A stretch of 64,000 nt of DNA from NCBI RefSeq assembly GCF_039939955.1, contig NZ_JBDVHS010000006.1:62580-126579 (forward strand). The letters are read 5' to 3'. Under the pieces are notes generated by a model. The model did not search any database. It was not told the DNA's origin and worked only from the letters and a program-made list of their open reading frames with translations. Below, one piece after another: positions 30,791 through 41,835 of the stretch; the stretch's first letter is position 1, and each line of letters opens with the position of its first letter. This stretch comes from Parasphingorhabdus sp. (GTDB lineage: Bacteria; Pseudomonadota; Alphaproteobacteria; Sphingomonadales; Sphingomonadaceae). The position numbers and the translations under genes were made by a program.

Positions 30791-31270
30791 TTATTTTCTG
30801 TCACCTTCCGGCCCCTCGCCCCCATCCTCCTCCGGCGGCAGCATCCGGTCAAGCCGCCCGAGTAGCGTCAAAAGCGCGCTATTGTCGGCTTTTCGGACCG
30901 TCCCGACATAGCGGCCGCCGCGCAGGACGGGCCGGTAGCTGCCCTGCTTTAGCCGCTGGAACAGCGTTTCTAGTGTGACCTTTCGCCGCTGACCTGCTGG
31001 CACACCCATTATCATATCCCAGGCCGCAACAAATTCCTCAGCGCCGGGCTTGCGGCGGAGCCGATAAGCGCTCTCCCTGCTCATCCCGACCAGCGCCGCC
31101 GCCTTTTTGACGCAGCGGGTCTGCGCCAGCAGCCCAATAAATTCCGCCTGCCGGACCGGCGACCAGCCGTCGGCGCGCGGGCGCAGCGGCACGGGCGTAA
31201 AAGCAGGGACGCGAGAAATGGTGCGTTCTTGCACAGAACGGCTGCGGGGGTCGGGACGGAAGTCTAACAT
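30791..31270 (-). CDS. Hypothetical HTH-like protein of sphingomonads
   Basis: FTPVPLRPRADGWSPVRQAEFI...AAALVGMSRESAYRLR (HTH-like). Start uncertain. Confidence 0.6.
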   Translation of the reverse strand: MLDFRPDPRSRSVQERTISRVPAFTPVPLRPRADGWSPVRQAEFIGLLAQTRCVKKAAALVGMSRESAYRLRRKPGAEEFVAAWDMIMGVPAGQRRKVTLETLFQRLKQGSYRPVLRGGRYVGTVRKADNSALLTLLGRLDRMLPPEEDGGEGPEGDRK

Positions 31271-31394: not shown

Positions 31395-31940
31395 TCAGCC
31401 TGGCGATAACGTGCAAGCAATCTCACGAACGGCTGGCCAAACCCGTATCAGAATTTGAACCAAGAAGAACAAGAATGCACAAAGCCATATAGCTATTGAG
31501 ACTATCGATAAGATAATCATGTGATACGACACTGATGGTTTTTTTACTATCTGCTGGTCAACCCAACGTCGGAAAAACGACTGCTTCTTGCTACCCTTAA
31601 GTGATTGACGAACCTGTTCCTTGATATCTTTCATAGGACGTTCAAAGGAAGTTACCCCGAGCTTTTCTGCTAGTTCATTGACTTCAACTTCCCAGCTTTC
31701 TTGCCAAAAACGCGACCCTAGATTTGTTCTAAACCATAAAAACGAGGTGATCGTTCCAAACACCGTAATAATTAACGCCAGCAGATTATCGTCAACTGCA
31801 ATCGCTCCAATTCCTAATGCAGTGATCAACACTAGAAAATAGTTTGAACGCTGCCAGAACAGCTGAATCTCAAAAGCTCGGTTTTCCAATGCAATATCGA
31901 GCTCTTTTAGACGATCAGATTTGGTTTTCTTGCTAGCCAA
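31395..31940 (-). CDS. 3-TM membrane protein, candidate effector (resembles 'RipA family octameric membrane protein', from memory)
   Basis: RAFEIQLFWQRSNYF, TM-TM, GSRFWQESWE, SVS, TM. TTG start overlaps the upstream stop. Confidence 0.75.
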   Translation of the reverse strand: MASKKTKSDRLKELDIALENRAFEIQLFWQRSNYFLVLITALGIGAIAVDDNLLALIITVFGTITSFLWFRTNLGSRFWQESWEVEVNELAEKLGVTSFERPMKDIKEQVRQSLKGSKKQSFFRRWVDQQIVKKPSVSYHMIILSIVSIAIWLCAFLFFLVQILIRVWPAVREIACTLSPG

Positions 31941-32919
31941 AGGATTTAGCTCGAGGAAGTTTAATTTTACCTGTATATATGTTTCTCAAAATCATTTCTG
32001 ACCAAAGATCAAACGATGACAGGTCGTTCAAACGATGACTTAAATCCAACCAACTCAGTTGGTTTATTGAAAGCTCGCCTTTTTTCGGAATCTCATCATT
32101 TTTGTGGTGAAATGCAACCAAGACCGCAATGTGGTGTCGAGCATCAAAATTGTCGTCAACATTCACGTATCCAAGGATTTCCGTGCGTTCTTCCGTATCA
32201 GTAACGTCTGCATAAACATCGTCTAGAAAAAGCTCTTCGCGCAGCTCTCGGACCGCGTTATTTCGAAATGCATCCGATCCCATATTAAATAGGTCAAAAT
32301 CTTGGTCATTTATATGGCCACCAAACCCTACGCTAAGCTGCCCCTTTAACTCGTCGCTGGTTGTTGTGAATTTTCCTCTCTTATAGATCAGCAACTTTGA
32401 CCCGTAATACACCAAGGTAAAAGTAACAAATTGCTTTAATGTATCGTCTGTCTCTGCGGATGCACGATCCACAAATTTGCACTCTCGTTCGTAAAGGTTT
32501 TTAAATTCATCGTCGCTGAAAGGGGTATACTCGCCGTAGATAAGAGAATTTAGTTGGTCTTTAGGAGCCACTAGAACATTCTCTTTACGGATAGACTTCG
32601 TTCGTAAATGTCCAGCGTAGGCTTGCTTATATTCTTCGGGAGTTCCAACTAAGGAAGCCACTTCGTGCAAAAAATACTTGGCTGGCCCTGTCCTATAAAA
32701 CGCTGAACGACTACTTTTCTGACGAATGTTTTCAGAGAGCCTCGCTGCCAAAGTCTTATCCATTCTCAGTCCGGATAAATGAGATGGCAGGAAACCTTCC
32801 TCACGAGCGAAATCAAGAATCTCAGAAGGGCTTAGCGGCGTTTTCTTTTGCAAGATGGCTTGATAGGCCACGTTCAAATAAGCGTTGTCGCCGAAAGAGG
32901 ATGGAGCACTCTCAGCCAT
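31933..32919 (-). CDS. HARE-HTH winged helix fused to Nudix-fold (COG4112-like) phosphoesterase
   Basis: N-terminal AYQAILQKKTPLSPSEIL...KTLAARLSENI...FYRTGPAKYFL. C-terminal KQFVTF...YKRG...LSVGFGGHI...AVRELREEL. Confidence 0.75.
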   Translation of the reverse strand: MAESAPSSFGDNAYLNVAYQAILQKKTPLSPSEILDFAREEGFLPSHLSGLRMDKTLAARLSENIRQKSSRSAFYRTGPAKYFLHEVASLVGTPEEYKQAYAGHLRTKSIRKENVLVAPKDQLNSLIYGEYTPFSDDEFKNLYERECKFVDRASAETDDTLKQFVTFTLVYYGSKLLIYKRGKFTTTSDELKGQLSVGFGGHINDQDFDLFNMGSDAFRNNAVRELREELFLDDVYADVTDTEERTEILGYVNVDDNFDARHHIAVLVAFHHKNDEIPKKGELSINQLSWLDLSHRLNDLSSFDLWSEMILRNIYTGKIKLPRAKSFG

Positions 32920-33586
32920 TGGCCTTTTGATTTCTAAATATTAACCCATACACTCGCTTGGACCCTATCGATCGTTCGGTAAATACTTTCAACGAAAACC
33001 CCATCTGCATAACGCAGTCTATGATTCGTTCCAAACGGTCAGCGATGAAGGGATACTCTTCTCCTGTAAACCGGTCAACTTTGTCCAAAGTGATCGGGTT
33101 ATCCAAAAACTCAGAAACAATGTTCGATGAGCCTAGTTCAATCGCTTCTGCCAGAATATCCTGCCATACGTCCGGTACAATCAAAATTAAACTGCCATCC
33201 GAAGTACAAAGAGAGCAGATCTTTTTTATCACAGATGGCGATGTTCCCAATTCCAACAATGAAAAACTAACTAACACTGCTTCAAAATGAGCATTATCTA
33301 GTATCGCTTCAAGGACGTCACCACATATAATTTTTTGCTGCATATCGTTCGGTTTAAGTTTTTCCGCATGATCCAATCTACGCTGATTACTGTCAACGAG
33401 TGTCCAAAAAGCTTCATGGGAAAGCCCTCGATCGATTTCACGAGATAAATGACCGGTTGCAGCACCGACGTCAACAATAGACGAAACCAACTCCTTATTG
33501 AGGTAATCTCTAACAAAAGGTATTATAAAACTGGTACGAATTGGATCAATATTTGAACCATTTTCCCATTGCAGCACTTCGTCCAA
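32912..33586 (-). CDS. Class I SAM-dependent methyltransferase (small-molecule type)
   Basis: Motif I IVDVGAATGHL, acidic motif II LVDSN, GD, GSLILIVP. TTG start. Confidence 0.8.
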   Translation of the reverse strand: MDEVLQWENGSNIDPIRTSFIIPFVRDYLNKELVSSIVDVGAATGHLSREIDRGLSHEAFWTLVDSNQRRLDHAEKLKPNDMQQKIICGDVLEAILDNAHFEAVLVSFSLLELGTSPSVIKKICSLCTSDGSLILIVPDVWQDILAEAIELGSSNIVSEFLDNPITLDKVDRFTGEEYPFIADRLERIIDCVMQMGFSLKVFTERSIGSKRVYGLIFRNQKANG

Positions 33587-33795
33587 ATTTAAATAACCCC
33601 ACTATTTATATCTAGAGTATCTGTTTTTGTTACTACACGTTTCTTACTATTTCAATTTTTTTGATTTGCGCCAATTGTAAGAGAAAAATTTGTCATTGGA
33701 AATTTTCGCTAGCAGAATCAAAAACAATTCACCCAATGCAAAACCAACACAGATTTGATACCCTCCTCCCAACCACCACAACAGGAGGCCCCACC

Positions 33796-34242
33796 ATGAC
33801 CACCCCCCAACCAACCCACCGCCAGGGCCATTGCCTCTGCGGCGCCATCACGATCACCGCCGCACAGGCCGTTAGCCATGTCGATTCCTGTCATTGCCGG
33901 ATGTGCCGGCGTTGGGGTGGCGGGCCGTTTGTCGAGATTGATTGCGGGACGGATGTGGTGATTGACGGGGCGGAGAAGATGACCGTCTACAGCTCGTCGG
34001 AATGGGCGGAGCGGGCCTTTTGCGGGGATTGCGGCTCGCATCTCTTCTATCGCCTGAAGGGTTCGGGCGAGCATATGGTCTGCGCCGGGCTGTTCGACGA
34101 TGCGACGGACAAGGATGACGGGCTGGCCCTCCGCCGACAGGTGTTTATCGATGAGAAGCCCTCTTATTACAGCTTTGCCGGGGATAGCGAGATGCTGACC
34201 GGTGCGGAGCTGTTTGCGCAGGCTGGCGTAGAGCAGGAATAG
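33796..34242 (+). CDS. GFA family protein
   Basis: GHCLCG, CHCRMCRR, FCGDCGS. SD AGGAGG at 33783. Confidence 0.9.
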   Translation: MTTPQPTHRQGHCLCGAITITAAQAVSHVDSCHCRMCRRWGGGPFVEIDCGTDVVIDGAEKMTVYSSSEWAERAFCGDCGSHLFYRLKGSGEHMVCAGLFDDATDKDDGLALRRQVFIDEKPSYYSFAGDSEMLTGAELFAQAGVEQE

Positions 34243-34269: not shown

Positions 34270-34560
34270 CTTCGACCGGCTCAGGACGAACGGTGGGGTG
34301 TGGACGCACCTGCTCTAGTCTCAACCAATCCGTTCGTGCTGAGCCTGTCGAAGCATGAGTGGGAAAAACTGAACCTGCCTCATAGACGCGGCCCAACAGG
34401 CTCACGATGAACGGTTGGGGGTGGAAGCGTCTTGTTCTTGCCTCAACCACTCCGTTCGTGCTGAGCTTGTCGAAGTACGGGTTGGAAGATCTGGGCCTGC
34501 CTCATAGACGCCGCCGTTGACCTGCGGTCGCCTTCGGCCCGACAAGCTCGGGACGAACGG
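34270..34560. repeat. BIME-like array of five alternating REP-type repeats (consensus CCGTTCGTGCTGAGCYTGTCGAAG)
   Basis: Copies at 34270(-), 34330(+), 34391(-), 34452(+), 34537(-). Linkers CTCAACCA and CTGCCTCATAGACG recur with ~121-122 bp period. Confidence 0.85.
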
Positions 34561-34582
34561 GGTTTTTCGCTTTCCCGCACCC

Positions 34583-39214: not shown

Positions 39215-39628
39215 ATGGCCATACCAGACCCAGCAATGGTTCCAACCGAACCCGTATCAGCAAACGTATGCGCGCAAATGGTAGAATCGGCTACACGCTC
39301 TTGTCAGCCATTGTTTCAAATACCTCCTGAGCCGGTCAATAGCACGGCGGACTCTCTCGCAATGTTGTCTACAGCCTTCACGTTCGGTTCAATTATACTT
39401 GCTATAATAGCAGTCATTGCTGGCTTCGCTTGGTCTAAGGTTGTGGCCTACAAAGCGGAGGAAGAGGCAAAAAAAGTAGCAAAAGACTGCGCGGATGTAT
39501 ATATAGAGGATTGGTTAGCCAAAAAGGCTCCTGGAATAATCCGAAGTAGAGTAGACTTTATCTTGGACGCGACTTTAGGTCCAGGCGATGACGCCAAGGC
39601 CGCAGATGATATCGGAAAGGAGGCATAG
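39215..39628 (+). CDS. Hypothetical single-TM protein
   Basis: One TM helix (IILAIIAVIAGFAW) plus a helical tail. 2 nt from the ImmA/IrrE start. Confidence 0.6.
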   Translation: MAIPDPAMVPTEPVSANVCAQMVESATRSCQPLFQIPPEPVNSTADSLAMLSTAFTFGSIILAIIAVIAGFAWSKVVAYKAEEEAKKVAKDCADVYIEDWLAKKAPGIIRSRVDFILDATLGPGDDAKAADDIGKEA

Positions 39629-39630
39629 TT

Positions 39631-40092
39631 ATGACAGACCACATGCAAGTTATTAAACGGCATTGGGACAAGACGCCCGTGCCGATCAACGAAATCATCT
39701 GTGATATAGGCCTGCCCATTGAGTACAAGCCGTTGCCCGATGATATTTCAGGTTATATTGAACGCGAGAACGGCGATTACCGGATCGTAGTTAATGCCAA
39801 TCATGCGCAAACGCGCCAACGCTTCACTGCGGCGCACGAACTAGGGCATTATATCTACCACCGCGATCTCCTTGGAGAGGGCGTTGGCGATAATCGTGCA
39901 TATCGGACAGAGGGAACAGACCGCCCAAATATGAATATCCGGCCAATTCATGAGCGGCAGGCAAACAGCTTCGCTGCCAACGTTTTAATGCCTAAACACA
40001 GGCTGGTGGATGTTGCCGGAGAAACCACGCTAGGATTGGCTAACAGATTTGGCGTTTCACAAGAGGCTATGCGGATTAGATTGGGCCGATAG
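39631..40092 (+). CDS. ImmA/IrrE family metallo-endopeptidase
   Basis: RQRFTAAHELGHY (HExxH), ERQANSFAANVLMP, FGVSQEAMRIRL. Confidence 0.92.
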   Translation: MTDHMQVIKRHWDKTPVPINEIICDIGLPIEYKPLPDDISGYIERENGDYRIVVNANHAQTRQRFTAAHELGHYIYHRDLLGEGVGDNRAYRTEGTDRPNMNIRPIHERQANSFAANVLMPKHRLVDVAGETTLGLANRFGVSQEAMRIRLGR

Positions 40093-40098
40093 GGGAGG

Positions 40099-40392
40099 CT
40101 ATTCAATAATTCGGTTCATTTCATCGAATAGATAGGGCGCGGCGGTCACGGTTTTTTGACGGCGGGCAACTTTCTTGAAGTGCTCAATATCACTGCACAT
40201 TTCCATAACACCCTCTATCTTCCCGATCTGGCGCGTGAGGATTGTGCGACCCTCACCAGTTAGTCATTGATGGAATCGTGCTCGGCGCTTTCCTTCATCA
40301 GTGACGTTCAATTTGTCGAGTTCCGCCTTCACATAACCGTTCTCAATTGGTTCGTAGACATATTTATTGATGAATTTCCCATAGTATTGGGA
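40099..40392 (-). pseudogene. 5'-truncated P63C-domain-like gene remnant with internal stop
   Basis: Manual translation SQYYGKFINKYVYEPIENGYVKAELDKLNVTDEGKRRARFHQ*LTGEGRTILTRQIGKIEGVMEMCSDIEHFKKVARRQKTVTAAPYLFDEMNRIIE*, with in-frame TGA at 40264-40266. Confidence 0.65.
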
Positions 40393-40458
40393 ATTATCGT
40401 GACAATGCACTTAATCCGGATGCCCGCTCAGATTTGGGTGGCGCACAGTCTGCGTAAT

Positions 40459-41835
40459 TCATAAAGGCAACCGAAGTTTCCAATTTGGGTGAATTTCTCT
40501 CGGATCATCAATGAGATCACGGTTCAATTCGTAAATCTCGTTTGCACGGATCGGGTCATCGAAGTATTTACGTGCAATCGTTGGCAGATCTTCTCCGGGC
40601 TCAACCAAATGAAAGTCCACAGACTTTGTTTCAAGATCACATTGACGAAGTTTGTTAAGCTTTAAAAGCATTTTTTCAATCTCGTCGCTTAAACGAGCTA
40701 AGGGTTTTGGCCTATATTCCAGACCTTCCGGCAAATCGGTAGCCTTAAGCGACCACCGCCGAAATGCGAAAGCACTGACATCTTTCATAAACGTCGGACC
40801 TTGTCGGGGTGCATGAAGCAGTTTTCTATTCAACCAGCCAATTCCTCCCCTTTCATAAAAGGGGCGGTCTGGATCGTTTTGAAGCGGAGAAAGATAGTCT
40901 GGCTCAACGCCAAACACCCTAGAGTTTTTCGCCACATTTATTTCTAAACCGGCCCGTCTTGCTCCAACTAAAATCCACGAAAACGCAGAATCCGATAGGC
41001 CTCTCATAGGTCCGCCTCCCCCGACGGCGCTGTGCACCCCTGGGAACCATTTTTGCTGATATGGTGCCTCTGCATCATAAGGGGAAATACCTTTGTCAGA
41101 GTTTAACTCATTGACGTTTCCCCAAATCGTAGGCCGAAACAATTTCCGAGTTTCATCAATAGCCAGTGCATGCCGCGCGCTGTGAACCTTACTGGTCAGA
41201 CGAACATCATGGAACCCTTTGCGACGATTCAGCCAATTTGCCCCTGGAAGGACATTCGGCCATCCCAACGCACCAACAGTATCCCAAACACCTACATATT
41301 TAATGTTTAACTTTGTCGAGTGTTCTTTAACAAAATCGTCCACATTCTCACAACGCCAGTCCTCATCAAATTCACTGACACAAACTTTTGAGGAATGTTC
41401 GGCGCGAAATTCTAACGCATCTAAATGATCATCGCCATCAGCACCCATGGCTGCTTCATAAAGCTCAATAGCTCTATCGATTTCTTTAGCGCTATTAACG
41501 TCCAAAATTCCGACATGGCGAACAAACCCTGCAAACGAGCGGGCTGTAAAAGCCCCTCTAGAAAAACCAAAAATGAAGATTTCATCTGCTGGCTCGTGAT
41601 TAAAAATCAGAAACCGATAGGCTTCTCTCAGATTTGTAACCAAGCCGACGCCAAACAAAGTACCCCGAACTCGATCAAGTTTTCCAGTTCCAACGCCCTC
41701 ATCATAATGAACCAGCTGAGGCGTGCCATCTGGAGCAGTAGGTAATATGCTCTCCGCCATAAGTACAACATTCGTTGGATTCACAGCAGCAAGCTTATTT
41801 GTAGTGCCATCGAAACAGAATACTAGTCGTTTCAT
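40459..41835 (-). CDS. DUF2235 (Tle1-like alpha/beta hydrolase) with C-terminal LysM domain
   Basis: RLVFCFDGT, YDEGVGT, GFSRGA, GVWDTV, WFPGVHSAVGGG. C-terminal HLVEPGEDLPTIARKY...IYELN...IHPNWKLRLP. Confidence 0.88.
   Translation of the reverse strand: MKRLVFCFDGTTNKLAAVNPTNVVLMAESILPTAPDGTPQLVHYDEGVGTGKLDRVRGTLFGVGLVTNLREAYRFLIFNHEPADEIFIFGFSRGAFTARSFAGFVRHVGILDVNSAKEIDRAIELYEAAMGADGDDHLDALEFRAEHSSKVCVSEFDEDWRCENVDDFVKEHSTKLNIKYVGVWDTVGALGWPNVLPGANWLNRRKGFHDVRLTSKVHSARHALAIDETRKLFRPTIWGNVNELNSDKGISPYDAEAPYQQKWFPGVHSAVGGGGPMRGLSDSAFSWILVGARRAGLEINVAKNSRVFGVEPDYLSPLQNDPDRPFYERGGIGWLNRKLLHAPRQGPTFMKDVSAFAFRRWSLKATDLPEGLEYRPKPLARLSDEIEKMLLKLNKLRQCDLETKSVDFHLVEPGEDLPTIARKYFDDPIRANEIYELNRDLIDDPREIHPNWKLRLPL

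Follow-up and report, generated by a model that had tools for sequence, protein, structure and literature searches.

What is encoded by a short, AT-rich block of three overlapping genes in Parasphingorhabdus sp., and is it, as an original prediction made from the sequence proposed, an anti-phage system? The block lies in a 64,000-nucleotide (nt) stretch of contig NZ_JBDVHS010000006.1 (assembly GCF_039939955.1, positions 62,580 to 126,579), which we call the window. It specifies, in the order of transcription, a methyltransferase (MT), a protein joining a HARE-HTH winged helix to a Nudix domain (NUD), and a small membrane protein (TM); the coordinates are collected in Table 1. In the prediction, MT might methylate a nucleotide or small molecule, NUD might sense, process or clear it, and TM might depolarise the membrane. 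Our analysis puts NUD, rather than MT, at the centre of the trio, and we give about even chances to the reading that the trio is a self-contained, horizontally mobile three-gene conflict cassette. Such a cassette would most likely act against phages or mobile elements, by abortive infection or growth arrest. The trio is a good candidate for experiment and not yet a demonstrated defence system.

The three open reading frames (ORFs) are real genes under purifying selection. A syntenic relative about 80% identical to the window, contig L022, holds the same operon at the same site, and its products bear the source label Parasphingorhabdus sp. In comparison with L022, the ratio of nonsynonymous to synonymous substitution rates (dN/dS) is 0.18 for MT, 0.024 for NUD and 0.058 for TM, and neighbouring housekeeping genes give values of 0.03-0.23. 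Because dN/dS is well below 1 in all three genes, and because the genes recur in the same order elsewhere, the trio is more than a chance arrangement. The co-orientation of the genes, the two 8-nt overlaps and the TTG starts of the outer genes were all as the prediction described them, and its counts of G+C were reproduced on recounting (22/60 and 24/60 on the 60-nt lines beginning at 33541 and 32401, and 40/60 on the line at 31021). Over its whole length the trio block has a G+C content of 0.42 versus 0.55 in the remainder of the window, and the lowest-G+C kilobase of the window (0.43, in 1-kb bins) falls within it. The start of MT is ambiguous, being either the TTG at 33586 (224 aa) or a GTG at codon 4, position 33577 (221 aa), the latter used in a public gene call (P0241); the TTG start of TM agrees with the N-termini of aligned homologues. 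Since the MT stop codon lies within the start region of NUD, the arrangement suggests translational coupling. In scans for promoters and terminators at the trio, matches did not rise above shuffled expectation, and no conserved upstream motif was found across 20 trio loci. In the three RNA runs checked for expression the organism is absent (0 reads).

Recurrence as a unit, which the prediction had put forward as a check, was found throughout. With an alignment of NUD homologues as the query (a single NUD sequence gave no genome loci), the trio was located in 7 of 185,579 species representatives, and in 7/7 of these loci MT, NUD and TM stand in the same order. The seven hosts belong to the Sphingomonadales, the Kordiimonadales, the Emcibacteraceae and unclassified alphaproteobacterial metagenome-assembled genomes (MAGs). 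The trio is also present at three further contigs, L022, L027 and L028. Among metagenome contigs, MT accompanies NUD in 14/14 and TM does so in 11/11 that could be assessed, three others ending within NUD. In all, some two dozen genomes and metagenome contigs of Alphaproteobacteria have a close NUD homologue, and wherever the neighbours could be assessed MT lies upstream of it and a gene of the TM family (8xMP, see below) downstream; at all loci the trio genes overlap or lie no more than about 10 nt apart. The exact 8-nt overlaps are lineage-specific, overlaps of 1-26 nt or gaps of 4-10 nt being found elsewhere among the hosts. In all 11 distinct loci measured, the G+C content of the trio is 9-19 points below that of its flanks. 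The flanks vary by host lineage and hold ordinary metabolic or housekeeping genes, e.g., thiC, gcrA, a uvrA-like gene and GFA; L022 shares the site of the window. The trio is chromosomal, and this one site has been kept across two species diverged by about 20% in nucleotides. In sum, the trio is strictly co-inherited, tightly coupled and compositionally foreign, and the operon is horizontally acquired and mobile, being confined mostly to marine and soil Alphaproteobacteria.

Two loci touched by these searches deserve separate mention. At a contig end of a Caulobacterales MAG (L008), a 189-aa ORF is 48% identical to NUD over residues 93-272 only. Neither an MT nor an 8xMP gene could be detected downstream of it, and the ORF may be what is left of a copy that was truncated or has decayed. 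On a Kordiimonadales contig (L025), three tandem genes whose 266-aa products have no Pfam match follow 3' of the trio and an HTH_3 gene.

The domain calls of the original prediction, a class I S-adenosylmethionine (SAM)-dependent methyltransferase, a HARE-HTH domain followed by a Nudix domain with a conserved RELxEE, and about three membrane helices, were right. NUD is the most conserved and most constrained of the three products. On the NUD of the window, the HARE-HTH profile PF05066 scores 21.8 bits (2.5e-4), under its gathering score of 25.9 bits; on NUD homologues it scores 29.6-43 bits (e.g., 6e-11 for L009 and 3e-10 for L105, both described below), and many trio homologues carry a precomputed match. 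In the AlphaFold2 model of NUD (pLDDT, the predicted local distance difference test, 83.6), the N-terminus forms three helices and a beta-hairpin wing (H13-25, H31-41, H53-71, E74-78, E81-84). Given the matches in homologues and the modelled winged helix, the N-terminal domain of NUD is a HARE-HTH domain. HARE-HTH is a conflict-associated module that is found fused to restriction nucleases (PMC12839542), and Aravind and Iyer (2012) are cited in that paper for the proposal that it is a reader of DNA modification.

The C-terminal domain of NUD is a Nudix fold of the YmaB/TM1382 type. The top Foldseek match of the model is TM1382 (3e57; E 1.7e-11, TM-score 0.80), which a search of the PDB with a NUD profile also reached (7e-10). 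The model has 44 structural matches at E <= 1e-3, and among the matches listed almost all are Nudix proteins. The Pfam NUDIX score on NUD is 0.03, under the cutoff. The REL(R/K)EEL half of the Nudix box is invariant; GFGGH(I/V)ND and an insertion stand in place of the Gx5E half, as they do in the YmaB/TM1382 subgroup; residues G198, F199, G200, G201, H202, R224, E225, L226, E228, E229 and L230 are invariant among 25 homologues. To judge from these residues, the Nudix domain is apparently catalytically competent. A tblastn search with it found 25% identity (E 1e-5) to the gene directly 3' of nrdI-nrdE-nrdF in Bacillus velezensis, which is the position of ymaB, and for YmaB there is a preliminary report of pyrophosphohydrolase activity on deoxynucleoside triphosphates (dNTPs) (PMC5960316). 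The domain also matches phrog_8902 at 2e-17. In phage records and IMG/VR contigs the NUD homologues are Nudix-only proteins of the YmaB type, and neither a HARE-HTH fusion nor the trio was found there, so the cassette is not evidently phage-borne. YmaB and TM1382 (PDB 3E57) are like the NUD Nudix domain in fold, in their N-terminal extension and in the GGH...RE..EE box, but they are stand-alone proteins of about 200 aa, with a provisionally assigned substrate, and lack both a HARE-HTH domain and any partner of the MT or membrane kind. Unlike the trio, they are found in the setting of dNTP synthesis (nrdI-nrdE-nrdF-ymaB of Bacillus subtilis) or of phage nucleotide metabolism.

The main new evidence comes from the relatives of NUD. 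Full-length HARE-HTH plus Nudix homologues (25-28% identity, 90-95% coverage) occur on alphaproteobacterial plasmids, and an alignment divides the family cleanly into Clade A, with an intact box (GFGGH..., RELxEEL), and Clade B, with a degenerate one (xVLxxDLDLS). Clade A comprises the trio and the loci L009, L155 and L219; Clade B comprises 61 genome loci together with the plasmid loci (numbered within L101-L166). At L009, from a Candidatus Roizmanbacteria MAG of the candidate phyla radiation, a D12 Dam-like DNA methyltransferase gene (1e-48), a NUD gene and a gene for a 279-aa protein follow one another with 4-nt overlaps. The 279-aa protein has three N-terminal transmembrane helices and a C-terminal domain without assignment, and is unrelated to the TM of the trio, so that the architecture parallels that of the trio with non-homologous outer genes. 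At L155 and L219, an intact-box NUD gene is followed co-directionally by a gene for a protein of about 625 aa with a PNP_UDP_1 domain, and there is no MT. At a further locus, L103, a HARE-HTH plus Nudix gene is convergent with a gene for a PNP_UDP_1 protein of about 620 aa, beyond which lie AAA ATPase and HD-domain genes.

In Clade B the first gene overlaps a downstream partner gene. Of 36 downstream partners at least 200 aa long, 34 fall into a single family, whose members have about 490-580 aa. Pfam detected CHAT in two of the partners tested (5e-8 and 1e-9); for a third, at L105, it gave nothing beyond a weak match to HEAT repeats. On the Ti plasmid of an Agrobacterium the Clade B pair stands among TIR, caspase, S8-peptidase and further CHAT genes, and on a Leisingera plasmid it adjoins an integrase gene and ccdAB. 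No description of this widespread two-gene operon of HARE-HTH plus degenerate Nudix with a protein of the partner family was found in the literature. Its first protein is built of two domains like NUD, and the gene for it overlaps the next one; the operon differs from the trio in its degenerate box, in the family of the partner, and in the lack of both MT and 8xMP.

Among the effectors of prokaryotic conflict systems, CHAT proteases, PNP nucleosidases and small membrane proteins are standard, and the swapping of partners of these types around a conserved core is the classic mark of a conflict system. Because the core is conserved and its effector-type partners are interchangeable, NUD, and not MT, is the hub. 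The trio and the NUD family present several of the general marks of defence: effectors are exchanged round a sensor that is itself conserved, the distribution is patchy, and horizontal transfer has left its signs. The defence role that was predicted for the trio gains from the exchange of partners (CHAT, PNP, or Dam with another transmembrane protein) and loses from the lack of known defence genes near the trio, to which we return below.

MT is a class I SAM-dependent methyltransferase. It matches the Pfam profiles Methyltransf_25 (2e-7) and Methyltransf_11 (9e-5), and it has the class I hallmarks of a Rossmann-like seven-strand fold, a glycine-rich motif I, which reads VDVGAATG here and DIGxGTG in homologues, and a beta-2 strand that ends in an acidic residue, WTLVD. 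Motifs kept among the homologues are W-E-x-G...D..R..F..P, DIGxGTG, FTLLE and K.DKFT..YPF.A.R. Its AlphaFold2 model (pLDDT 89.8) has 1,373 structural matches at E <= 1e-3, and among the matches listed all are SAM-dependent methyltransferases or proteins of that fold. The best Foldseek matches are 3sm3, CypM, RdmB, ChlM, NodS, BioC and Trm9, that is, small-molecule, peptide or transfer RNA (tRNA) methylases, and by its modelled fold MT resembles small-molecule or peptide methylases and not DNA methylases. Across host orders the identity of MT is 26-37%, far below that of NUD (61-64%) and TM (50-58%) in the seven genome loci, so MT evolves much faster than its partners.

These properties of MT bear on the idea that the trio is a cousin of restriction-modification systems, in which MT would mark the nucleic acid of the host as self, the HARE-HTH domain would recognise that mark, and Nudix and TM would act on unmarked invader DNA or respond to it. 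The Roizmanbacteria operon lends colour to this idea, since a bona fide D12 N6-adenine DNA methyltransferase occupies the MT position there, as do the nuclease fusions and the proposed reading of modifications noted above for HARE-HTH. In the trio itself, however, MT was rejected as a DNA methylase on both motif and fold evidence. A search for motif IV, (D/N/S)PP(Y/F/W), did not find it in MT, the beta-4 region reading FSLLE or FTLLE as in small-molecule methyltransferases; there is no N6_Mtase or D12 match in Pfam, and no DNA methyltransferase is found among the best structural matches listed. Further, the cassette has no nuclease, and relatives of NUD with an intact box occur without any MT. 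We consider this reading improbable.

TM is a member of the RipA/8xMP family. It matches Pfam PF24838 (8xMP) at 4.3e-24 with 85.3 bits, the cutoff being 30, and a homologue 86% identical to it bears the UniRef name 'RipA family octameric membrane protein'. Its hydropathy predicts a TM1-TM2 hairpin at aa 33-71, a soluble loop of about 65 aa and a third segment, TM3, at aa 136-172. The motifs kept in its homologues are IALxNRAFEIQLFWQRSNYF, NLGSKFWQESWE and KKPSV. Sequence and profile searches of the PDB found no relative of TM, a literature search found nothing on the structure of 8xMP, and the Pfam scan of TM gave no SLATT, CARF or SAVED match and no recognisable ligand-sensing domain. Some 8xMP proteins (P0295 and P0310) continue beyond the family domain into a C-terminal OmpA peptidoglycan-binding domain or GDA1/CD39 nucleoside phosphatase (apyrase) domain, and several others have extensions of 150-300 aa without a Pfam match. 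The OmpA and CD39 fusions suggest that the C-terminus of the family is periplasmic, which would place the loop of TM in the cytoplasm, and that the roles of the family are diverse. TM shares the motifs FWQRSNYF and GSKFWQ..WE with Francisella tularensis RipA and PF24838. RipA differs in that it is studied for its part in the envelope and in virulence, its interaction partner is LpxA, and no Nudix or MT partner has been reported for it; for the TM of the trio, an octamer is predicted by family membership.

A minority of the 8xMP genes outside the trio stand directly beside defence-type genes. At L094, a Pfam-confirmed 8xMP gene adjoins a retron-type reverse transcriptase gene, and a PADLOC match to retron RT_III-A (2.6e-160) most probably belongs to that reverse transcriptase; an Rfam scan gave no match to a retron RNA near it. 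At the other four loci (L055, L051, L080 and L033) the neighbours are genes for an AIPR protein, a HEPN-like protein, an SNF2-PLD helicase and an AAA-TIR protein. No recurrent partner was found among the neighbours of 68 non-trio 8xMP members.

With the three proteins assigned, the scheme of the original prediction can be weighed. It would have MT make a methylated signal on infection, Nudix sense or clear the signal, and TM depolarise the membrane when the signal accumulates, by analogy with CBASS (the cyclic-oligonucleotide-based anti-phage signalling system), Pycsar (the pyrimidine cyclase system for anti-phage resistance) and Thoeris. Nudix and other signal-degrading enzymes are known in signalling defence systems, and the small-molecule type of the MT fold, the intact Nudix box, and the membrane protein encoded last in the operon would all suit such a scheme. 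Scans of the three proteins with Pfam and PADLOC, however, found neither a signal synthase of CBASS, Pycsar or Thoeris (CD-NTase, pyrimidine cyclase or TIR) nor a signal-sensing effector domain, and the 8xMP protein is no better furnished with a recognisable ligand-sensing domain. Moreover, NUD is invariant in its box, is the most constrained of the three, and recurs with other partners and, in the Clade A relatives L155 and L219, without MT. Since NUD is kept while its partners change, it fits a core sensor or enzyme better than the accessory signal-clearing enzyme it was taken for. Beyond analogy nothing speaks for a methylated-nucleotide signal that gates TM, and it now seems to us highly improbable.

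How does the trio compare with systems already described? All defence models used here are those of PADLOC-DB v2.0.0 (2023). NUD and TM have no match to them at E <= 1, and literature searches found no paper describing this combination of domains, in agreement with the prediction that the trio is not a named system. It appears, from its sequence matches, to be an unnamed system built of known families (Nudix/YmaB, HARE-HTH, RipA/8xMP and class I methyltransferase). MT matches mad2 of MADS (PDLC04134) at 1.5e-9, over profile positions 278-402 of 492, which is the SAM-binding core alone. One further weak mad2 match (5e-7) was seen among 100 trio-neighbour ORFs, its source ORF being untraced. A link to MADS by way of mad3 and mad8 matches among the neighbours was rejected, for all of these come from one UvrA-like ABC ATPase at the single locus L028. 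CBASS, Pycsar and Thoeris combine an enzyme or sensor with a small membrane protein in an operon logic like that of the trio; the likeness is a functional analogy only. The same is true of dGTPase, dCTP deaminase and the PNP effector of Detocs, whose depletion of nucleotides recalls the YmaB-like Nudix domain and the PNP partners of its relatives. Both the signalling and the nucleotide-depleting defences differ from the trio, which has no signal synthase and no sequence match to PADLOC effector or sensor models. By analogy, then, the logic of the trio resembles that of known sensor-plus-effector conflict operons. NrtR regulators combine a Nudix-fold ligand domain with a winged helix, as NUD does, and the NrtR Nudix domain 3gz8 is among the structural matches of NUD; the Nudix domains of NrtR are usually inactive sensors of ADP-ribose. 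In NrtR the order of the domains is reversed and the HTH is of another type, and no conserved operator was found across the 20 trio loci.

Several observations weigh against the conflict-cassette reading. Proximity of the trio to known defence genes, another check put forward in the prediction, was found at none of the nine loci for which neighbours were compared with PADLOC; enrichment of the kind seen in defence islands was absent, and among the 100 neighbour ORFs all matches but the one weak mad2 match came from the UvrA-like ABC ATPase. A search of the islet found no integrase, tRNA gene or flanking direct repeats. With its dN/dS of 0.024, NUD is as constrained as a housekeeping or core enzyme. 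The support from the CHAT-linked relatives is indirect, because they share no more than 25-28% identity with NUD and their catalytic box is gone, and the Dam variant with three transmembrane helices is a single locus, the Roizmanbacteria NUD having found itself alone when used as the query. Further, TM is not an anonymous effector. Its family, 8xMP, is very large: 1,813 clusters match at E <= 1e-3 (about 1,800 at 50% identity), and many of its genes outside the trio adjoin housekeeping genes (rpoC, gyrB, ftsH, murG and a Mur ligase gene). Its sole studied member, Francisella RipA, interacts with LpxA, a cell-envelope connection, and is needed for intracellular growth (PMC4322802, PMC12444477).

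Taken in this light, the trio might have nothing to do with defence: a RipA-type octamer could anchor Nudix and MT as an accessory module that sanitises the dNTP pool or trims a nucleotide-linked envelope precursor, with the HARE-HTH domain autoregulatory as in NrtR. The homology of the Nudix domain to YmaB of the nrd operon, the tie of RipA to LpxA, the housekeeping contexts of many 8xMP genes and the fusion of some of their products to periplasmic OmpA or CD39-apyrase domains, the strong purifying selection on NUD and the metabolic neighbours of the trio all agree with such a module. It accords poorly with the extremely patchy distribution and always foreign composition of the trio, with the pairing of NUD homologues with CHAT and PNP effector-type proteins, and with the failure to find an upstream operator motif kept across the 20 trio loci. 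Sphingomonads, the main hosts of the trio, are known to lack lipid A, and so a role of the LpxA type is unlikely there. On balance we hold an accessory module to be unlikely.

A small, tightly coupled, mobile and AT-rich operon with a membrane protein last might also be a toxin-antitoxin-like addiction module, in which the 8xMP protein is a toxin neutralised by MT, NUD or both, with no immune role; plasmid-borne relatives of NUD do adjoin CcdAB and HipA modules. Yet the cassette is chromosomal and has been kept at one site in the two diverged species, and it would be unusual for antitoxins to be a pair of enzymes whose active sites are intact. Intrinsic toxicity is also argued against by the many homologues of the 8xMP protein that stand alone, with no partners. 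Addiction alone is a distinctly improbable account of the trio.

Under the conflict-cassette reading, which we prefer, NUD would be the sensing and enzymatic core. It would bind DNA or another nucleic acid through the winged helix of its HARE-HTH domain, and its Nudix domain would hydrolyse a (d)NTP or a nucleoside diphosphate linked to another moiety (NDP-X) by a putative pyrophosphohydrolase activity. The RipA/8xMP inner-membrane protein would provide the output or the anchor; both its N-terminal segment and its loop of about 65 aa probably lie in the cytoplasm, where the soluble partners could dock on them. MT, as the cassette-specific modifier, could put a mark on some component of self or on the substrate of the Nudix domain, or could hold the system off. 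We infer the defence role, the substrates, the topology, the assignment of sensor and killer, and any physical complex of the three proteins.

Table 1. Features of the trio, of related loci and of the rest of the window. Positions are those of the window unless another contig is named.
Feature	Contig	Positions	Strand	Remarks
MT, gene 1	window	33586..32912	minus	224 aa, TTG start (ORF list)
NUD (HARE-HTH/Nudix protein), gene 2	window	32919..31933	minus	328 aa, ATG start (ORF list)
TM (membrane protein), gene 3	window	31940..31395	minus	181 aa, TTG start (ORF list)
MT/NUD 8-nt overlap	window	32912..32919	minus	ATGGCTGA; MT stop codon within NUD start region
NUD/TM 8-nt overlap	window	31933..31940	minus	TTGGCTAG; NUD stop codon within TM start region
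HARE-HTH winged-helix domain of NUD	window	32650..32892	minus	about aa 10-90; PF05066
Nudix-fold domain of NUD	window	31975..32601	minus	about aa 107-315; YmaB/TM1382 (COG4112-like) type
Nudix box with insertion	window	32227..32328	minus	aa 198-231; GFGGHIND...(insert)...AVRELREELFLD
AT-rich spacer upstream of operon	window	33587..33702	minus	sole promoter-like match TTTCCA-17-TACAAT, 33702-33674, weak
Low-G+C islet	window	31395..33700		0.42 G+C; between GFA-family gene and 159-aa gene
GFA-family gene, islet flank	window	33661-34242	plus	
159-aa gene, islet flank	window	30791-31270	minus	
Truncated or decayed NUD copy (possible)	L008	54-623		Caulobacterales MAG, contig end
Three tandem genes 3' of trio	L025	12739-16110		266-aa products
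Dam-like MTase, NUD, 279-aa protein	L009	2958-5520		Clade A
NUD and PNP_UDP_1 protein	L155	3995-6831		Clade A
NUD and PNP_UDP_1 protein	L219	1018-3377		Clade A
HARE-HTH plus Nudix, convergent PNP_UDP_1 protein	L103	6025-8813		
Clade B pair	L101	5998-8606		
Clade B pair	L102	5998-8615		
8xMP gene with defence-type neighbour	L094	3386-5684		retron-type reverse transcriptase
8xMP gene with defence-type neighbour	L055	2723-4614		
8xMP gene with defence-type neighbour	L051	3737-5459		
8xMP gene with defence-type neighbour	L080	1010-5378		
8xMP gene with defence-type neighbour	L033	2969-5495		
Second low-G+C islet	window	39215-41835		0.46-0.51 G+C
Tandem repeat units	window	34273-34563		units of about 120 nt

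Elsewhere in the window, a second low-G+C islet lies about 6 kb from the trio, just before thiC. It encodes a 137-aa hydrophobic protein followed by an IrrE/ImmA-type Peptidase_M78 protein (7e-21) and, on the opposite strand, a 458-aa Tle1-like (DUF2235) phospholipase-type hydrolase (5e-70) whose C-terminus is a LysM domain. Like the trio, this islet may have been acquired, as a further conflict or toxin module. The repeat region listed at the foot of Table 1 consists of tandem units that each enclose an inverted repeat of 24 nt (families D1/D2 and I1/I2). In the assembly of the isolate, contigs break there, and the word depth, otherwise about 72, goes up to about 257; the region looks like a multi-copy element of this genome, akin to repetitive extragenic palindromes (REP) or miniature inverted-repeat transposable elements (MITE).

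What would the trio mean for the families from which it is built? Even with no part in defence, it would remain a mobile module of three genes that is defined unusually well. If it is immune in function, HARE-HTH joined to a YmaB-like Nudix domain would be a new type of sensor, and its at least four alternative sets of partners would offer a comparative framework for what is sensed. A dNTP pyrophosphohydrolase fold of the housekeeping type would also be tied to conflict systems, beside nucleotide depletion of the dGTPase, dCTP deaminase and PNP types. A wider proposal, which we make tentatively and regard as somewhat doubtful, is that HARE-HTH plus Nudix proteins form an undescribed immune or conflict superfamily, in which one core that senses nucleic acid and nucleotides is wired to CHAT, PNP or membrane outputs; the 8xMP octamer of the trio would then represent a new class of membrane effector for abortive infection, under the control of a pyrophosphohydrolase of the dNTP type and of a dedicated small-molecule methyltransferase. 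An immune role for the trio would give a first functional handle on the RipA/8xMP family, which has one studied member, and the wider proposal would suggest a function for this large family, so far studied only in Francisella.

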